Shown: piece by piece, positions 1 to 18,900 of the stretch
Position numbering within the stretch: the stretch's first letter is position 1
Layout: every line of letters begins with the position of its first letter
Source: Escherichia coli
GTDB taxonomy: Bacteria; Pseudomonadota; Gammaproteobacteria; Enterobacterales; Enterobacteriaceae
Assembly: GCF_003334815.1 (NCBI RefSeq)
Contig: NZ_QOWO01000048.1
Direction: 5' to 3' (one strand)
Length of the DNA stretch: 25,066 bases
Translations under genes and position numbers: made by a program
Notes under the pieces: generated by a model
Database searches by the model: none
Told to the model about the DNA's origin: nothing
What the model saw: the letters and a program-made list of their open reading frames with translations, nothing else

Positions 1-39
1 AAAAAATCGGCTCAAACATGAAGAAATGAAATGACTGAG

Positions 40-336
40 TCAGCCGAGAAGAATTTCCCCGCTTATTCGCACCTTCCCTAGGCCATTAGCTAACAAAGCA
101 AGATAATTCGCCCTTAACCTTCTAGCATCAGCAAGTGAGATAGCTGGGAAAGCACCTATCCCTATCATTGTTCTTTTTTTTGTAGTTGGTCGTTGATAGC
201 GAAAGCGCCAGAGTTTTTTACCGTTTGTTTTCACTATCAGAAAAAGCCCATCACCATCATGCAGTGTTAGATCCTTATCTAGCGCTTTAGCACGTAGAAC
301 TTCGGTGTTGCTCAGAGGGCGTGTTGTCCGAGCCAC
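40..336 (-). pseudogene. P4-family (phage-type) tyrosine integrase, N-terminal fragment only (98 aa, then in-frame TGA at 40-42)
   Basis: Translation MARTTRPLSNTEVLRAKALDKDLTLHDGDGLFLIVKTNGKKLWRFRYQRP... matches the N-terminal arm-binding domain pattern of P4-like integrases (DGDGL..L.V...G.K.W.FRY). GTG start at 334-336 preceded by AAGGAG (revcomp of 344-349). Integrases of this family are about 400 aa; no catalytic domain continues in any frame through positions 1-39. Lies directly downstream of the ssrA 3' end, the classical island integration site. Confidence 0.6.
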
Positions 337-354
337 TTGGCCGCTCCTTAATGA

Positions 355-408
355 ATTGGTATACGCGTTTAGGTATACATCCTATCGTATACCTAAACGT
401 ATACCAAT
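355..408. repeat. Near-perfect inverted repeat upstream of the integrase fragment; candidate operator or arm-type site
   Basis: Left arm 355-378 attggtatacgcgtttaggtatac and right arm 387-408 gtatacctaaacgtataccaat are reverse complements apart from a 2-nt indel. Inner perfect 13-bp arms at 366-378 and 387-399, 8-bp spacer atcctatc. Contains four GGTATAC motifs. Confidence 0.7.
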
Positions 409-519
409 AATCACTGGATTTAGCGGGATATCCTCGGACAACGGTAGACACAAAAAAGCCCACAGGGCTTGCGCCATGCGGGCTTTCAGGATTTCTCCGG
501 ACGTATCCGGAAGAGCAAG

Positions 520-1710: not shown

Positions 1711-2187
1711 ATGATATTATTTGTTGGATTTTTGTTGATGGAAATTGTTATGCCTCAGATTAGCCGGACCGCACTGGTACCCTACAGCGCGGAGCAAATG
1801 TATCAGTTAGTGAATGACGTTCAGTCTTATCCTCAGTTTTTGCCGGGTTGTACCGGAAGTCGGATTCTGGAGTCCACTCCTGGGCAGATGACTGCGGCGG
1901 TAGATGTCTCTAAGGCTGGGATCAGCAAAACGTTTACTACCCGCAACCAGTTGACCAGTAACCAAAGTATTCTTATGAATCTGGTGGATGGGCCGTTCAA
2001 GAAATTGATTGGTGGATGGAAGTTTACGCCGCTGAGCCAGGAGGCGTGTCGTATCGAGTTTCATCTCGACTTTGAGTTTACCAATAAGTTGATTGAACTC
2101 GCCTTTGGTCGCGTGTTTAAAGAGCTGGCGGCTAATATGGTCCAGGCTTTTACGGTTCGTGCGAAAGAGGTTTACAGTGCCAGGTAA
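1711..2187 (+). CDS. ratA: SRPBCC/Coq10-like ribosome association protein RatA (PasT/YfjG), 158 aa
   Basis: ORF translation [47 protein letters not shown]... matches E. coli RatA; divergent from smpB as in K-12. Confidence 0.9.
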
Positions 2188-2467
2188 AATTGCCGTTGAG
2201 GTGGCTTATGCGCTACCTGAGAAGCAGTACCTGCAGCGAGTGACGCTGCAGGAGGGCGCGACGGTTGAAGAAGCTATTCGCGCCAGTGGCTTGCTGGAAT
2301 TGCGTACCGATATCGATTTAACTAAAAACAAAGTCGGCATTTACAGCCGTCCGGCAAAACTAAGCGATAGTGTGCATGATGGCGATCGGGTGGAGATTTA
2401 TCGCCCTCTCATTGCCGATCCGAAAGAGCTTCGCAGGCAACGAGCAGAAAAATCAGCGAATAAATAA
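2177..2467 (+). CDS. ratB: RatB (YfjF), 96 aa, RnfH/ubiquitin-like fold family
   Basis: GTG start at 2177 gives [27 protein letters not shown]...; overlaps the ratA 3' end by 11 nt. The ORF track's longer 124-aa version starts inside ratA. Confidence 0.85.
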
Positions 2468-2474
2468 CAGACAG

Positions 2475-2503
2475 AAAAAAGGTGCTCATTGAGCACCTTT
2501 TTT
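2475..2503. terminator. Bidirectional intrinsic terminator between convergent ratB and bamE
   Basis: aaaaaa-GGTGCTC-att-GAGCACC-tttttt: 7-bp perfect stem, 3-nt loop, flanked by an A-run and a T-run so it can terminate both strands. Confidence 0.75.
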
Positions 2504-2528
2504 AACGTCTTTGAGAGCAACTTTATTA

Positions 2529-2870
2529 TTAGTTACCACTCAGCGCAGGTTTGTTATCAATATTGGTCAACACACCGCTACTGTTAAAGGTCAGCGTCAG
2601 CGTTTGCTGAGTTACACCTTCATGACCTGGTTGCTGGCGGAAGACATAGAACCAGGTATTCGTACCAAATGGATCGGACATCAGCGGTGTACCCAATGCG
2701 TACGCAACTTGTTGTTGCGTCATGCCAACACGTATTTTGGATACGTCGTTAGCGGTCAGATAGTTCCCCTGGTTGATGTCAGGACGGTAAACCACTCGCT
2801 CCAGAGTGGAACAGCCTGCGGTCAACATCAATAGTACTGCTGCTGCAGCAGTCAGCGTTTTACAGCGCAT
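2529..2870 (-). CDS. bamE: Outer membrane protein assembly factor BamE (SmpA) lipoprotein, 113 aa
   Basis: Translation [38 protein letters not shown]... with lipobox LTAGC; matches BamE. Confidence 0.95.
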
Positions 2871-3018
2871 AGTGATTTGATTCCTTTTCGGGCCCGAGCA
2901 GTACGTGGCTCATCTGTAATATGCCGATGATAATAGACCTTTCATCACTTTAAAACCTTTTGCTTTCCGGTCTTACGGCGTTTTGCTGTTTACTCTGACC
3001 GTGAAGCAGGAAAAAAGT

Positions 3019-4680
3019 TTACGCTGCAAGCAGTTCTTTCGCATTCGCCAGTGTATTACGTGTGACTTCACTGCCACCAAGCAGGCGCGCCAGCTCTTGT
3101 AACCGCGCTTTTTTATTCAGGGATTGCATATGCGTTTCTGTCATCGCACCATCGGTTTCTTTGCTGACAAAATAGTGTTGATGACCACATCCCGCGACTT
3201 GTGGCAGGTGGGTAACACACATCACCTGAGTTGATTCGCCGAGTTGACGCAGCAGTTTGCCGACAACTGCCGCTGTTGGACCGCTAATCCCTACATCCAC
3301 TTCATCAAAAATCAGTGCCGGGGTTTCCATTTTACGCGCCGTGATGACCTGGATTGCCAGTGCGATGCGGGACAATTCACCACCGGATGCGACTTTGGCA
3401 ATAGGCTGCATTGGCTGACCTGGGTTGGTGGTTACCCGAAACTCAATACGATCGGCACCGTCAGCGCCCAGGTGATGCTCGTCAAATTTAACATCGATCG
3501 TAAACTGCCCATGCGGCATTGAGAGCGCATGCATACTGTCGGTGATCAGCTGTGCAAGTTCTTCTGCATATTGCTGGCGTTGTTGGTGTAATGCGCGCGC
3601 GATTTCCAGTGCCTGCTGATGATGTTTCGTTACCGCCAGCGCAAGCGTTTCTTGTGAGTCGGCCTGATCGTCCAGTTGCTGCTGTTCTTCCAGTAGCGAC
3701 TGGTAATACTGTGGCAATGCCTCAGGGCTGACGTGATGTTTACGTGCCAGCGAAATCTGTTTTGAGATGCGCTGTTCAAGTTCAAATAGTCGGTTGGGAT
3801 CGAGATCCAGACGATCGCAGTAGTGGCGCAGTTCATCGCTGGCTTCAGCAATCTGGATGGTAGCTTCTTCCAGCATATCAAGTACGCCGGACAGTTTGCT
3901 GTCCATGCCAATCAATTCGCTCACCAGTTGTTTAGCCGTGTAAAGCTGACTTTGCAGGTTTGCGTCTTCACCGTCGGCCATTAATGCCAATGCATTCTGG
4001 CTGGTGGTCAGCAATTGACCGCTGTTCGCCAGACGTTTGTACTCTTCGTCGATTTGTTCAAACTCTCCGGGCTGCGGATTAAATTCGTTAAGTTCTTTTA
4101 ATTGGTATTGCAGCAGTTCCGCACGGGCGGCGCGTTCCTGACTTAACTGTTGATGATGCGCGAGGTCACGGCAGCTTTGATGCCACAACTGATAACGTGC
4201 GGTCATTTCCTGCAGTAGAGAGGTTTCATTGGCATAGCCATCAAGCAGGAATTTTTGGTGCTCAGGTTTGGTGAGTAATTGATGAGCGTGCTGACCATGG
4301 ATCTGAATCAGCAACTGACCCAGTTCGCGCAGTTGTGACAGAGGAACAGCTGTACCGTTGATGAAACCACGGGAGCGACCATCGCTGCTGATCACGCGAC
4401 GAAGCAAACATTCATGCCCGTCTTCAAGCTGGTTTTCTTCCAGCCAGCGCAGAGCCGCTGGCGTATCTTTCAGAGAAAAACGGGCGCACAGGTCAGCGCG
4501 AGCAGCGCCGGTACGCACCATGTCGGCTTCAGCGCGACCACCGAGACAAAGACCGAGGGCATCTATTGCAATAGATTTACCCGCGCCGGTCTCGCCAGTT
4601 ATTACGGTCATGCCGCTATGAAAATCAATCTCAAGCTCACGAACGATAGCAAAGTTGCTGATGGTCAGTTGTGCCAACAT
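3019..4680 (-). CDS. recN: DNA repair protein RecN (SMC-like ATPase), 553 aa
   Basis: Translation [44 protein letters not shown]... with Walker A GETGAGKS; length and sequence match RecN. Confidence 0.97.
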
Positions 4681-5733: not shown

Positions 5734-6360
<627 letters not shown>

Positions 6361-11941: not shown

Positions 11942-12292
<351 letters not shown>

Positions 12293-12321
12293 GATTTCGC
12301 TTAAGCGACATCCTGTTAAGA

Positions 12322-12351
12322 AGGGCTGGCCAATTGGCTGGCCCTTTTTTA
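12322..12351 (+). terminator. Intrinsic terminator of the rpsP operon, downstream of rplS
   Basis: AGGGCTGGCC-aatt-GGCTGGCCCT hairpin (10-bp stem with two G-U wobble pairs) followed by TTTTTT. Confidence 0.8.
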
Positions 12352-12367
12352 TCTGTTTGCTGGTGTT

Positions 12368-12850
12368 TTAAGGGGTAGTAATCACCACTGCGACGCGGCG
12401 GTTCTCGGCGCGGCCCTGGGCGGTCTTGTTACTGGCTATGGGATATTTTTTTCCTAAACCCTGTGTGGTGAGATTGCTGCGTGGAATTTGTCCACCCATA
12501 GCCCATGCATCGGCCACGACATTCGCCCGTTTCAATGATAAGCCTTCGTTGTAACTGTCTTCACCATAGTTATCGGTGTGTCCATCCATACGGGCATGTG
12601 TTAGCCCTGTCGAGGCCAATTTAGCTGCCATGGTTTGGATCTGTTGCTGGCTTTCCGGGAGCAATTTGTAGTCATTTTTTGCGAACAGAATGGCATCTGA
12701 TAAGCCCAGCGACCAGTCGCCGGCGGATTCAGTAAATCCATAAGATTGCATAGCGGCGACTTGCTCAGGAGTAAACTTTCCCTGAGGGGACTGGCAGCCA
12801 GTCAGTATTAGTGAGGTGAAAACCAGGGGTGCTACCAGGTGCTTTATCAT
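12368..12850 (-). CDS. yfiB: OmpA-family peptidoglycan-binding outer membrane lipoprotein YfiB, 160 aa
   Basis: Translation MIKHLVAPLVFTSLILTGCQSPQGKF... (lipobox LTGC) with an OmpA-like C-terminal region (NRRVAVVI); last gene of the yfiR-yfiN-yfiB operon. Confidence 0.93.
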   Translation of the reverse strand: MIKHLVAPLVFTSLILTGCQSPQGKFTPEQVAAMQSYGFTESAGDWSLGLSDAILFAKNDYKLLPESQQQIQTMAAKLASTGLTHARMDGHTDNYGEDSYNEGLSLKRANVVADAWAMGGQIPRSNLTTQGLGKKYPIASNKTAQGRAENRRVAVVITTP

Positions 12851-12865
12851 ATCGATATATCCTTG

Positions 12866-14092
12866 TTATCTCACCAGCTTTTCGGCACGCTGGTGTTTGG
12901 CCTGATACATATTGTGATCGGCAAGCTCTTGTAATTTTTCCGCAGAGGCGTGCTCAATGGTCATCGCGTAACCAATGCTTAATGTCATGGTGGTCTGATG
13001 GCCATTATGAAGATCAAACGGGAGATTAAAGATTTGTGTCAGTGCTGAACATATCTGCTGCACTTCAGATTCCGACTGTACATCATAGAGCACCATAGCG
13101 AATTCATCGCCGCCCAGGCGGTATGCTTTATGTCGCAGCCCGCCAAATTCAGCTAACCGTTTTGCGATTTCAATCAAGACTCTATCGCCCGTCGCATGAC
13201 CCCAGGTATCATTGATGTATTTGAAATTATCGCCATCAAGAAATAGTAACGCCGACGTTTTTCGGGCATCGGAATTGTTCATCAACGTGTTGATGCCGCT
13301 ACGAAACGCTGCGCGGTTAGCCAGCCCGGTTAATGGGTCATGTAGCGCGGTACGTAGAAGCTGCGCATTTTTAGCCTGTAAACGAAGCTGCCACTCTTCC
13401 ATTTCATCCAGCAGACTGTTGAAGTCGAGAGCGAAGCGGTGAAACTCAGCGATACGTTCTTCCGAAACTCGTCGGGAAAAATTGCGGTTGGAACGCACAT
13501 CATGTACGACATCGGTGATATTTTTCAGCGCTTCTACCAGGCCATTGTGCAAATGGCGGGTGAGGGTAATTGCGATGCCTGATGCCAGCAGAATACAACC
13601 GGTCAGTACGGCGAGCGAAAACCAGATAAAATGGCTGATTGAACTGTCGCGAGCGGTTAAGCGTACTTCGCCAATGGTTTCACCATTGTGACGAATCGGC
13701 TGAATGATGGGGGCAGGGAAGAGCCAGTGGCTTATGAAATTACTGAAAGTATCGCCTGGATCCTTACGGGTGTAATGCCAGGATGCCAGAATATTTTGCT
13801 GCTTATCACGTACTTCTGCAGTTGAAAATTGCCCTTGCTGGCCCAGCGCTGCCAGTGTTTCAGTTGCTGCAGGGCCATCGGCAAAAACGACAGCTGCTTC
13901 CAGACTGTAAGTCATTGTTGCTGCTGTCAGTGCCAGGTTTTTTTGCGCGTACTGTTTCAGGGTCAGCACCGAGGTCACGGAAAGCAGCAACCAGATCAGC
14001 ATCATAGTGATAAATATGCTGGTCATACTGATGTTGCGTAATGCTCTTTTAAACGTGGGGCGCTTATTAAGAGAATTATCGTTATCCATCAT
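12866..14092 (-). CDS. dgcN: Inner-membrane diguanylate cyclase YfiN (DgcN), 408 aa
   Basis: Translation [37 protein letters not shown]... with an N-terminal transmembrane/periplasmic region and a C-terminal GGDEF domain ([12 protein letters not shown]). Confidence 0.93.
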
Positions 14093-14600
14093 TTTTCTTC
14101 CGTGCGAGCATTAAGACATCCGGGTTGACCTTTACACCGCTACGCGATAAGGCATCCAGGTTTACGGCAAATCTGACGTCATTATTGTGGATGATCAGAC
14201 AAAAGGCGCTACCAATAATGCACTCGGTATTTTGTTCGGCAATTAATAATAACGCCTTTGACGGATATTGTTCGGTTAATTCCATCTGGAATGTCGGTGA
14301 CTCGTTGCCAAAATAAAAACCATTGCAGCCTGAAATCATCGCCTCTTGTTGAGTGTGAATGATGACAGGCAGATAAGGCAAAGATGTCGCGGCATTCTCT
14401 TGTAGGGCGGTACTAAAACGTGAAGATGAAAAGATACATAACTTTGGTGGCCCTGATAGCGCAGGCCAGCGGGTGTAACTGACAATACCGGAAACCATCA
14501 TACGCACGTTTTTCGCAACGTCAGAAGGCTCCTGAGCGAGTATTGGTGCTCCCGTCAGCAGGAGAATCAGAAGTAAGAACAGTCGGTGAGAAAAACGCAT
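14082..14600 (-). CDS. yfiR: Periplasmic repressor of YfiN, YfiR, 172 aa
   Basis: Translation [46 protein letters not shown]... with a signal peptide; overlaps the yfiN start by 11 nt. Confidence 0.9.
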
Positions 14601-14749
14601 TCAGGGATCCCCACCATCTTCGCTCGAAATGCATCGATATTTTTTCAGAATGCTCATTAAAATATCATTTTTTCATGCGACCGTCATCAATGTGAGAAAT
14701 AAAACACAATGAGTAAAATCTTATGTTTAATTTATTTGTGGGGTTTTAA

Positions 14750-15115
14750 TTAATTTAATCGTATTGTGCTGGCATTTTCATCAGCCCCTTTTTGCCATAC
14801 TTCATGCAGTTGGCTGGCATTTTCAACATTGTTGCAGCTGGCAGGAAAGCTTTTACCGGAAAGTCCTCGGGCATAAGTAAAATCGGTCTGGCAAGTTTTC
14901 TTTTGTCCTTCGGCATATCCTTTAAGGTATAGACCGCGATCCGCCTGTGAATCGCTAAATGCATCGTCATCTTTTATGGCGCTGCCCGATATCGCATCTT
15001 CCATACCGACATCATACCAGTCGGTGCTGGTCAAGGTTGGCGCGTGAGTATAAGGATCAATCTGACATCCGCTAACCAGTAAAGCCAACAAGGGGGCGAT
15101 AAACTTTTTCATCAT
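14750..15115 (-). CDS. yfiL: Lipoprotein YfiL, 121 aa
   Basis: From the internal ATG at 15113-15115: MMKKFIAPLLALLVSGCQIDPYTHAPTLTSTDWYDVG... with lipobox LVSGC. The ORF track version extends 13 codons upstream. Confidence 0.8.
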   Translation of the reverse strand: MMKKFIAPLLALLVSGCQIDPYTHAPTLTSTDWYDVGMEDAISGSAIKDDDAFSDSQADRGLYLKGYAEGQKKTCQTDFTYARGLSGKSFPASCNNVENASQLHEVWQKGADENASTIRLN

Positions 15116-15160
15116 TTCTTTCTCCTTTTTCAAAGCATAGCGGATTGTTTTCAAAGGGAG

Positions 15161-15230
15161 TGTAAATTTATCTATACAGAGGTAAGGGTTGAAAGCGCGA
15201 CTAAATTGCCTGTGTAAATAAAAATGTACG
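15161..15230 (+). promoter_or_regulatory. aroF: TyrR boxes upstream of aroF
   Basis: TGTAAA-tttatc-TATACA (15161-15178) and TGTAAA-taaaaa-TGTACG (15213-15230) fit the TyrR box consensus TGTAAA-N6-TTTACA; a weaker TGAAAA-N6-TTTATG lies at 15241-15258, overlapping the putative -35. Confidence 0.7.
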
Positions 15231-15239
15231 AAATATGGA

Positions 15240-15267
15240 TTGAAAACTTTACTTTATGTGTTATCGT
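15240..15267 (+). promoter_or_regulatory. aroF: Putative aroF promoter
   Basis: -35 TTGAAA (15240-15245), 16-bp spacer, -10 TATCGT (15262-15267), about 58 bp upstream of the aroF ATG and adjacent to the TyrR boxes. Confidence 0.5.
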
Positions 15268-15324
15268 TACGTCATCCTCGCTGAGGATCAACTATCGCAA
15301 ACGAGCATAAACAGGATCGCCATC

Positions 15325-16395
15325 ATGCAAAAAGACGCGCTGAATAACGTACATATTACCGACGAACAGGTTTTAATGACTCCGGAACAACTGAAGGCCG
15401 CTTTTCCATTGAGCCTGCAACAAGAAGCCCAGATTGCTGACTCGCGTAAAAGCATTTCAGATATTATCGCCGGGCGCGATCCTCGTCTGCTGGTAGTATG
15501 TGGTCCTTGTTCCATTCATGATCCGGAAACTGCTCTGGAATATGCTCGTCGATTTAAAGCCCTTGCCGCAGAGGTCAGCGATAGCCTCTATCTGGTAATG
15601 CGCGTCTATTTTGAAAAACCCCGTACCACTGTCGGCTGGAAAGGGTTAATTAACGATCCCCATATGGATGGCTCTTTTGATGTAGAAGCCGGGCTGCAGA
15701 TCGCGCGTAAATTGCTGCTTGAGCTGGTGAATATGGGACTGCCACTGGCGACGGAAGCGTTAGATCCGAATAGCCCGCAATACCTGGGCGATCTGTTTAG
15801 CTGGTCAGCAATTGGTGCTCGTACAACGGAATCGCAAACTCACCGTGAAATGGCCTCCGGGCTTTCCATGCCGGTTGGTTTTAAAAACGGCACCGACGGC
15901 AGTCTGGCAACAGCAATTAACGCTATGCGCGCCGCCGCCCAGCCGCACCGTTTTGTTGGCATTAACCAGGCAGGGCAGGTTGCGTTGCTACAAACTCAGG
16001 GGAATCCGGACGGCCATGTGATCCTGCGCGGTGGTAAAGCGCCGAACTATAGCCCTGCGGATGTTGCGCAATGTGAAAAAGAGATGGAACAGGCGGGACT
16101 GCGCCCGTCTCTGATGGTAGATTGCAGCCACGGTAATTCCAATAAAGATTATCGCCGTCAGCCTGCGGTGGCAGAATCCGTGGTTGCTCAAATCAAAGAT
16201 GGCAATCGCTCAATTATTGGTCTGATGATCGAAAGTAATATCCACGAGGGCAATCAGTCTTCCGAGCAACCGCGCAGTGAAATGAAATACGGTGTATCCG
16301 TAACCGATGCCTGCATTAGCTGGGAAATGACCGATGCCTTGCTGCGTGAAATTCATCAGGATCTGAACGGGCAGCTGACGGCTCGCGTGGCTTAA
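15325..16395 (+). CDS. aroF: Tyrosine-sensitive DAHP synthase AroF, 356 aa
   Basis: From the ATG at 15325: [66 protein letters not shown]...; the ORF track version extends 23 codons upstream. Confidence 0.95.
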
Positions 16396-18730: not shown

Positions 18731-18752
18731 AGTGTTGCCTTTTTGTTATCAA

Positions 18753-18784
18753 TAAAAAAGGCCCCCCGATTTGGGAGGCCTTAT
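18753..18784 (-). terminator. pheL: pheA attenuator terminator (leader 3:4 hairpin)
   Basis: On the minus strand: AAGGCCTCCC-aaatc-GGGGGGCCTT followed by TTTTTT, lying between the pheL stop and the pheA start. Confidence 0.75.
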
Positions 18785-18828
18785 TGTTCGTCTTCGCATT
18801 CTGTTTCACACGACGAAACGCCTCCCAT

Positions 18829-18876
18829 TCAGGGGAAGGTAAAAAAGAATGCGAAGAAAAACGGTATGTGTTTCAT
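18829..18876 (-). CDS. pheL: pheA leader peptide PheL (15 aa, Phe-rich)
   Basis: Reverse complement reads ATG AAA CAC ATA CCG TTT TTC TTC GCA TTC TTT TTT ACC TTC CCC TGA = [15 protein letters not shown]; seven Phe codons, the classical attenuation leader. Confidence 0.85.
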
Positions 18877-18900
18877 GTTTGTTTCCTTAAGTGACTTTAG

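Follow-up and report, generated by a model that had tools for sequence, protein, structure and literature searches.

Does this stretch of Escherichia coli DNA carry an intact yfiR-dgcN-yfiB operon, and how far does the published mechanism of c-di-GMP signaling by the three encoded proteins apply to this copy? We analyzed 25,066 nucleotides, referred to hereafter as the window. Three genes on its minus strand, yfiR, dgcN (also called yfiN), and yfiB, are co-oriented and tightly packed in that order (Table 1). The yfiR and dgcN genes overlap by 11 nt (14082–14092), and a gap of 15 bp (12851–12865) separates dgcN from yfiB. A preliminary description of this DNA had reported exactly this arrangement, which agrees with the coordinates of the open reading frames (ORFs) to the nucleotide. 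Shine-Dalgarno-like sequences precede each gene: GGTGGGGA lies 7 nt before the ATG of yfiR, GGAAGA before dgcN, and AAGGA before yfiB. The ORF listing also contains plus-strand ORFs of 50–76 amino acids within the operon span, which we treated as chance antisense ORFs.

Table 1 Features of the yfiR-dgcN-yfiB locus and its borders
Feature	Residues	Window positions	Strand	Basis
yfiL (DUF2799 lipoprotein gene)	121 aa	14750–15115	minus	MG1655 annotation
yfiL-yfiR intergenic region		14601–14749	minus	AT-rich; presumed operon promoter
yfiR	172 aa	14082–14600	minus	ORF listing, ATG start
YfiR signal peptide	~1–22	14535–14600	minus	Hydrophobic N-terminus
YfiR DUF4154 ("YfiR/HmsC-like", PF13689)	33–167		minus	Pfam, E 5.7e-31
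dgcN (yfiN)	408 aa	12866–14092	minus	ORF listing, ATG start
DgcN TM1	~20–46		minus	Hydrophobic segment
DgcN CHASE8 sensor (PF17152)	45–146	13655–13960	minus	Pfam, E 3.3e-33
DgcN TM2	~150–179		minus	Hydrophobic segment
DgcN helical linker	~180–245		minus	
DgcN GGDEF domain (PF00990)	249–403	12884–13348	minus	Pfam, E 2.3e-43
GGDEF active-site motif (context AYRLGGDEF)	327–331	13100–13114	minus	Direct sequence reading
yfiB	160 aa	12368–12850	minus	ORF listing, ATG start
YfiB lipobox LTGC	16–19	12794–12805	minus	Cys19, Gln at +2
YfiB OmpA/Pal-like peptidoglycan-binding domain (PF00691)	55–151	12398–12688	minus	Pfam OmpA, E 1.8e-17
rplS/yfiB convergent-gap hairpin		12318–12349	both strands read	Terminator scan and RNA fold

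The locus was compared directly with positions 2728000–2756000 of the E. coli K-12 MG1655 chromosome. Window positions 520–25066 align in reverse complement to MG1655 2731409–2755955, ungapped and with 2 mismatches. The three genes match b2603, b2604, and b2605 at every position (0 nucleotide differences, 100% DNA identity), and both their order and their neighbors on either side are those of K-12: rpsP-rimM-trmD-rplS converges with yfiB-dgcN-yfiR-yfiL, which is followed by aroF-tyrA. Neither the ORFs nor the comparison with MG1655 revealed a frameshift or an internal stop in yfiR, dgcN, or yfiB. Pseudogenization or frameshift of the operon was rejected because the operon is the same as that of MG1655 at every nucleotide. 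The preliminary description had named a frameshift or loss of the GGDEF motif as the observations that would speak against its reading; the motif, like the reading frames, is intact.

All three proteins pass the cut-off of a curated NCBIfam equivalog model. YfiR scores 168 bits against NF053586 (cut-off 85), DgcN scores 504 bits against NF007423 (cut-off 325), and YfiB scores 348 bits against NF007424 (cut-off 155) and 231 bits against NF053585 (cut-off 128). Judged by these models, scores of 168, 504, and 348 bits lie far beyond chance. Nothing that we found speaks against the identification, and we regard it as virtually certain that the locus is the yfiR-dgcN-yfiB operon on the chromosome of an E. 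coli strain with an essentially K-12 core genome in this region. The operon is already known and fully described, and the published experiments were performed on the well-studied K-12 operon, with which the present one is identical, so the label of a described system in the preliminary description was apt. As a textbook locus of the E. coli core genome it carries little weight as a discovery; it is useful as a positive control, having been annotated correctly from raw sequence.

The products had been read as a periplasmic repressor with a signal peptide, an inner-membrane GGDEF diguanylate cyclase with an intact RLGGDEF motif, and an OmpA-like outer-membrane lipoprotein. Each of these readings holds. 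YfiR begins with a hydrophobic N-terminus that ends in ...APILA/QEP and matches both NF053586 and DUF4154. DgcN contains RLGGDEF at residues 325–331 and two hydrophobic segments; these segments flank the CHASE8 domain, which places the sensor in the periplasm. YfiB carries the lipobox LTGC and matches the Pfam OmpA model. The preliminary description had also proposed a comparison with the characterized Pseudomonas and E. coli systems, and the best matches in the PDB are indeed the Pseudomonas aeruginosa proteins: the GGDEF domain of TpbB/YfiN for DgcN (42% identity), YfiR for YfiR (32% over the aligned stretch), and YfiB for YfiB (40% over the aligned stretch).

Upstream of GGDEF, DgcN has the GTP/Mg-binding block DxDxFKxIND..GH..GD at residues 286–303. 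The RxxD motif of the product-inhibition site (I-site) is absent from the whole 408-amino acid protein. The I-site position, five residues before GGDEF, is occupied instead by GLRH (residues 318–321), and the same GLRH and lack of I-sites have been reported for YfiN (PMC10127611). That study designates a predicted secondary I-site residue as N280. Residue 280 of DgcN (window 13253–13255) is a serine and the nearest asparagines are residues 272 and 289, in a translation identical to that of MG1655; the discrepancy probably reflects a numbering difference in PMC10127611. A further observation concerns the N-terminal half of the protein. Residues 17–232 (window 13397–14044), which comprise the TM-CHASE8-TM-linker region, match an NCBIfam model named "sensor histidine kinase, YfiR-like protein-associated" with an E value of 8e-23, a score below the cut-off of that model. 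From this match, some histidine kinases elsewhere seem to employ the same sensor module under the control of YfiR.

The domain search recovered the GGDEF and OmpA-like domains expected from the preliminary description. It did not recover the third domain expected there: a HAMP domain in DgcN gave no Pfam match even at E≤10. A PDB sequence search with residues 163–250, the linker from TM2 to GGDEF, returned only chance-level matches. Among the NCBIfam models, residues 169–236 match residues 172–238 of the BaeS model weakly (E 5.8e-4), and residues 159–404 match LapD, in addition to the match of residues 17–232 to the histidine kinase model given above. The matched regions of BaeS and LapD presumably contain HAMP. 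The HAMP label for DgcN comes from the literature, in which the linker between TM2 and GGDEF is so named (PMC4992967), and the NCBIfam matches, chiefly that to the BaeS region, lend it weak, indirect support. The question does not affect the identification of the operon.

The YfiBNR system of P. aeruginosa (PA1119–PA1121, in which TpbB is YfiN) has the same three-part architecture. The two systems share a signal peptide and four cysteines in YfiR, a lipobox and Pal-like peptidoglycan-binding residues in YfiB, and, in YfiN, both a GGDEF active site and a degenerate I-site. However, the YfiR proteins are only 32% identical, the YfiB proteins 40%, and the GGDEF domains 42%. The roles of individual residues at the YfiB/YfiR interface and in peptidoglycan binding are described in PMC4887326. 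The cysteines of E. coli YfiR at positions 55, 92, 127, and 134 align with Cys71, Cys110, Cys145, and Cys152 of the P. aeruginosa protein. YfiR retains F151, L166, V176, P178, and L181 (P. aeruginosa numbering), whereas E163 is replaced by alanine, I169 by leucine, and Q187 by lysine; three of the four P. aeruginosa residues that form the putative YfiN-binding site differ here. Two of these, E163 and I169, also contact YfiB, and the partner of E163 is R96 of YfiB (PMC4887326). In YfiB, the residues kept include the lipid-anchor cysteine, F48 and W55 in the regulatory N-terminal segment, R96, and the peptidoglycan-binding residues (N68, D102, G105, and R117 in P. aeruginosa, corresponding to N59, D93, G96, and R108 in E. 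coli), whereas L43 is replaced by methionine and F57 by leucine.

Published work on the identical proteins suggests how the operon would act in this strain. YfiR is exported to the periplasm, folds with two disulfide pairs, and binds the periplasmic CHASE8/PAS-like sensor of DgcN, thereby keeping DgcN inactive; these steps have been demonstrated in the literature on the same protein. Repression of the cyclase activity of YfiN by YfiR has been shown for the identical proteins of MG1655 (PMC4992967, PMC10127611), in which YfiR blocks YfiN function and DTT or mutation of dsbA relieves the block (PMC4992967). In E. coli, reducing conditions or loss of DsbA thus inactivate YfiR and release DgcN. 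Free DgcN converts GTP to c-di-GMP and, because it lacks RxxD, can run unchecked and deplete GTP. The growth arrest that YfiN causes through GTP depletion is abolished when GLRH is changed to RxxD together with a second-site change (PMC10127611). On additional envelope stress, DgcN moves to the division ring and halts division, as shown in MG1655, where this second stress brings YfiN to the Z ring via FtsZ and ZipA (PMC4992967).

The remaining step concerns YfiB, which in its activated form, as an outer-membrane lipoprotein bound to peptidoglycan, would sequester YfiR and so relieve repression. Sequestration has been demonstrated structurally in P. aeruginosa (PMC4887326), where genetic data agree, and has support from Shigella. 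Because it has been shown there and not clearly in E. coli, we infer this step by homology. Of the envelope-stress link to c-di-GMP proposed in the preliminary description, repression by YfiR and its relief by reductive stress have been shown in E. coli; the route through YfiB follows the Pseudomonas model and has been shown in E. coli only in part.

Alternatively, YfiB may not be the envelope-stress sensor that sequesters YfiR in E. coli. DgcN would then respond to the redox state of YfiR together with an envelope signal independent of YfiB, and YfiB would have some other task, for example cell-wall anchoring. E. coli lacking yfiB still relocates DgcN when the envelope is stressed (PMC4992967), yfiR-yfiN occurs in Salmonella without yfiB (PMC4992967), and several residues of the P. 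aeruginosa interface are changed here (E163 and I169 of YfiR, L43 and F57 of YfiB). Against these points, E. coli YfiB scores above the cut-off of the curated equivalog model for YfiB, keeps F48, W55, R96, and the N/D/G/R residues that bind peptidoglycan, and is encoded on the same strand only 15 bp after dgcN. Moreover, in Shigella flexneri, a close relative, deletion of yfiB lowers c-di-GMP and changes biofilm formation and adhesion (PMC8948675). On balance we consider this alternative unlikely, though it deserves to be kept in mind. What YfiB does in E. coli is less clear than in P. aeruginosa, and E. coli DgcN adds division-arrest and GTP-drain activities (PMC4992967, PMC10127611).

A second tripartite system, described as homologous, is HmsCDE of Yersinia pestis, in which the YfiR homolog HmsC responds to the redox environment (PMC5550408). 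We liken it to the present operon by description and by family names; RefSeq labels some fragments "YfiR/HmsC family". HmsCDE controls the biofilm that blocks the flea, in contrast to the phenotypes of E. coli.

We scanned positions 12150–15300 for promoters and terminators. Upstream of yfiR, the minus strand of this span showed no consensus sigma-70 site, and promoter-like sites occurred at the frequency expected from shuffled sequence (5 found versus a mean of 4.6). The RNA fold of the yfiL-yfiR intergenic region was no better than that of shuffled sequences (z −0.68) and gave no sign of a structured leader; an Rfam scan of the whole window placed no RNA family in or adjoining the operon. 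At the other end, the hairpin in the convergent gap between rplS and yfiB differs markedly between the strands. On the plus strand it forms 14 pairs with a folding energy of −28.3 kcal/mol (z −4.5), and the T-run is present on this strand only. On the minus strand the energy is −16.1 kcal/mol (z −1.6), the U-tract is poor, and two G-U pairs of the plus strand become C-A mismatches. As an intrinsic terminator the hairpin is strong for rplS, whereas the structure on the yfiB strand is much weaker. Because the minus-strand hairpin is weak and its U-tract poor, yfiB has no convincing intrinsic terminator, and the scan of 12150–15300 found no minus-strand terminator after either yfiB or yfiL.

The lack of a terminator after yfiL is the reason that we keep in view co-transcription of yfiL with yfiR-dgcN-yfiB, which would make a four-gene unit with YfiL as a fourth, Enterobacteriaceae-specific component of the pathway from envelope to c-di-GMP. 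yfiL lies on the operon strand 149 bp upstream of yfiR, with neither a minus-strand terminator-like hairpin nor a consensus promoter in between, and shares with the 5′ part of the operon a dip in G+C content to 0.43. The characterized systems of Pseudomonas and Yersinia are not known to include yfiL, which counts against such a unit. In addition, the AT-rich gap of 149 bp is typical of a promoter region, yfiL is annotated separately in MG1655, and a literature search found no link between yfiL and yfiR, its matches being irrelevant or incidental. We therefore judge the four-gene unit improbable and retain yfiR-dgcN-yfiB as the operon, with its presumed promoter in the gap. Two observations about this region may be added. 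The G+C value of 0.43 was obtained for window positions 14001–15500, which cover the 5′ part of yfiR, the spacer, and yfiL, versus about 0.50–0.53 in the flanking genes. The program-called yfiL ORF (14750–15154) begins with TTG and encodes 134 amino acids, versus 121 in the MG1655 annotation.

The operon was next placed in the context of the species. RefSeq contains 5426 complete E. coli genomes, every one of which matches its 2.4-kb region at an identity of at least 95%, and the features beneath these matches are annotated as dgcN, yfiB, and YfiR family protein. We sampled 60 of the genomes at even steps down the match ranking. The operon formed one uninterrupted match of 2233 bp in 55 of the 60, IS1 lay within the operon span in three, a short gap was present in one (97% coverage in two pieces), and most of the operon had been lost in another. 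The intact state seen here is the common one. In E. coli LR-24 (2083–3377 of the compared locus), IS1 interrupts yfiR at a point 84 nt short of the 3′ end of the gene, and derepression of DgcN would be expected. IS1 is found repeatedly in yfiR or within the operon in other E. coli genomes, on backgrounds 100% and 98% identical to the window, and IS2 in dgcN is seen as well.

Such insertions in yfiR or dgcN raise the possibility that the operon, though intact in sequence, is effectively silent or decaying in this strain, and native expression of DgcN in MG1655 is indeed too low to detect with a GFP fusion (PMC4992967). Yet the operon has no frameshift, stop, or insertion here, and the locus is kept in every one of the complete genomes. 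The identical MG1655 allele, furthermore, produces a lag-phase phenotype at native level, with a burst of protein upon dilution into fresh medium (PMC10127611). A silent or decaying operon is for these reasons hardly credible.

Outside the operon, the strain differs from MG1655 at window positions 1–519 and in GrpE. Only two differences occur in the 24.5 kb from 520 to 25066: at position 5896, A replaces G and changes valine to isoleucine at residue 44 of GrpE (V44I), and the other, likewise A for G, lies at position 25063, in an intergenic region upstream of clpB. Positions 1–519, beyond ssrA, are unlike MG1655: in place of the CP4-57 prophage they carry another island linked to ssrA, together with one end of an IS5-family element. 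Bases 78–519 match a gene for an "integrase domain-containing protein"; the ssrA-linked island to which this gene belongs is present in about 370 E. coli genomes. Bases 1–77 are the end of the IS5-family element, with terminal GGAAGGTGCGAATAAG and CTAG at the junction; the element, which occurs in 1–42 copies per genome on chromosomes and plasmids, interrupts the island integrase gene in the window. No complete genome in the collection contained the IS5-family/integrase junction in one piece, the best coverage being 86%. Of the small RNAs, RaiZ, which is annotated in MG1655, had no Rfam match in the window. The Rfam matches above the gathering score were tmRNA (ssrA, 520–882), the Phe leader (pheL, 18752–18877), and the sRNA RyfD (22183–22321), all of which agree with the annotation of MG1655.
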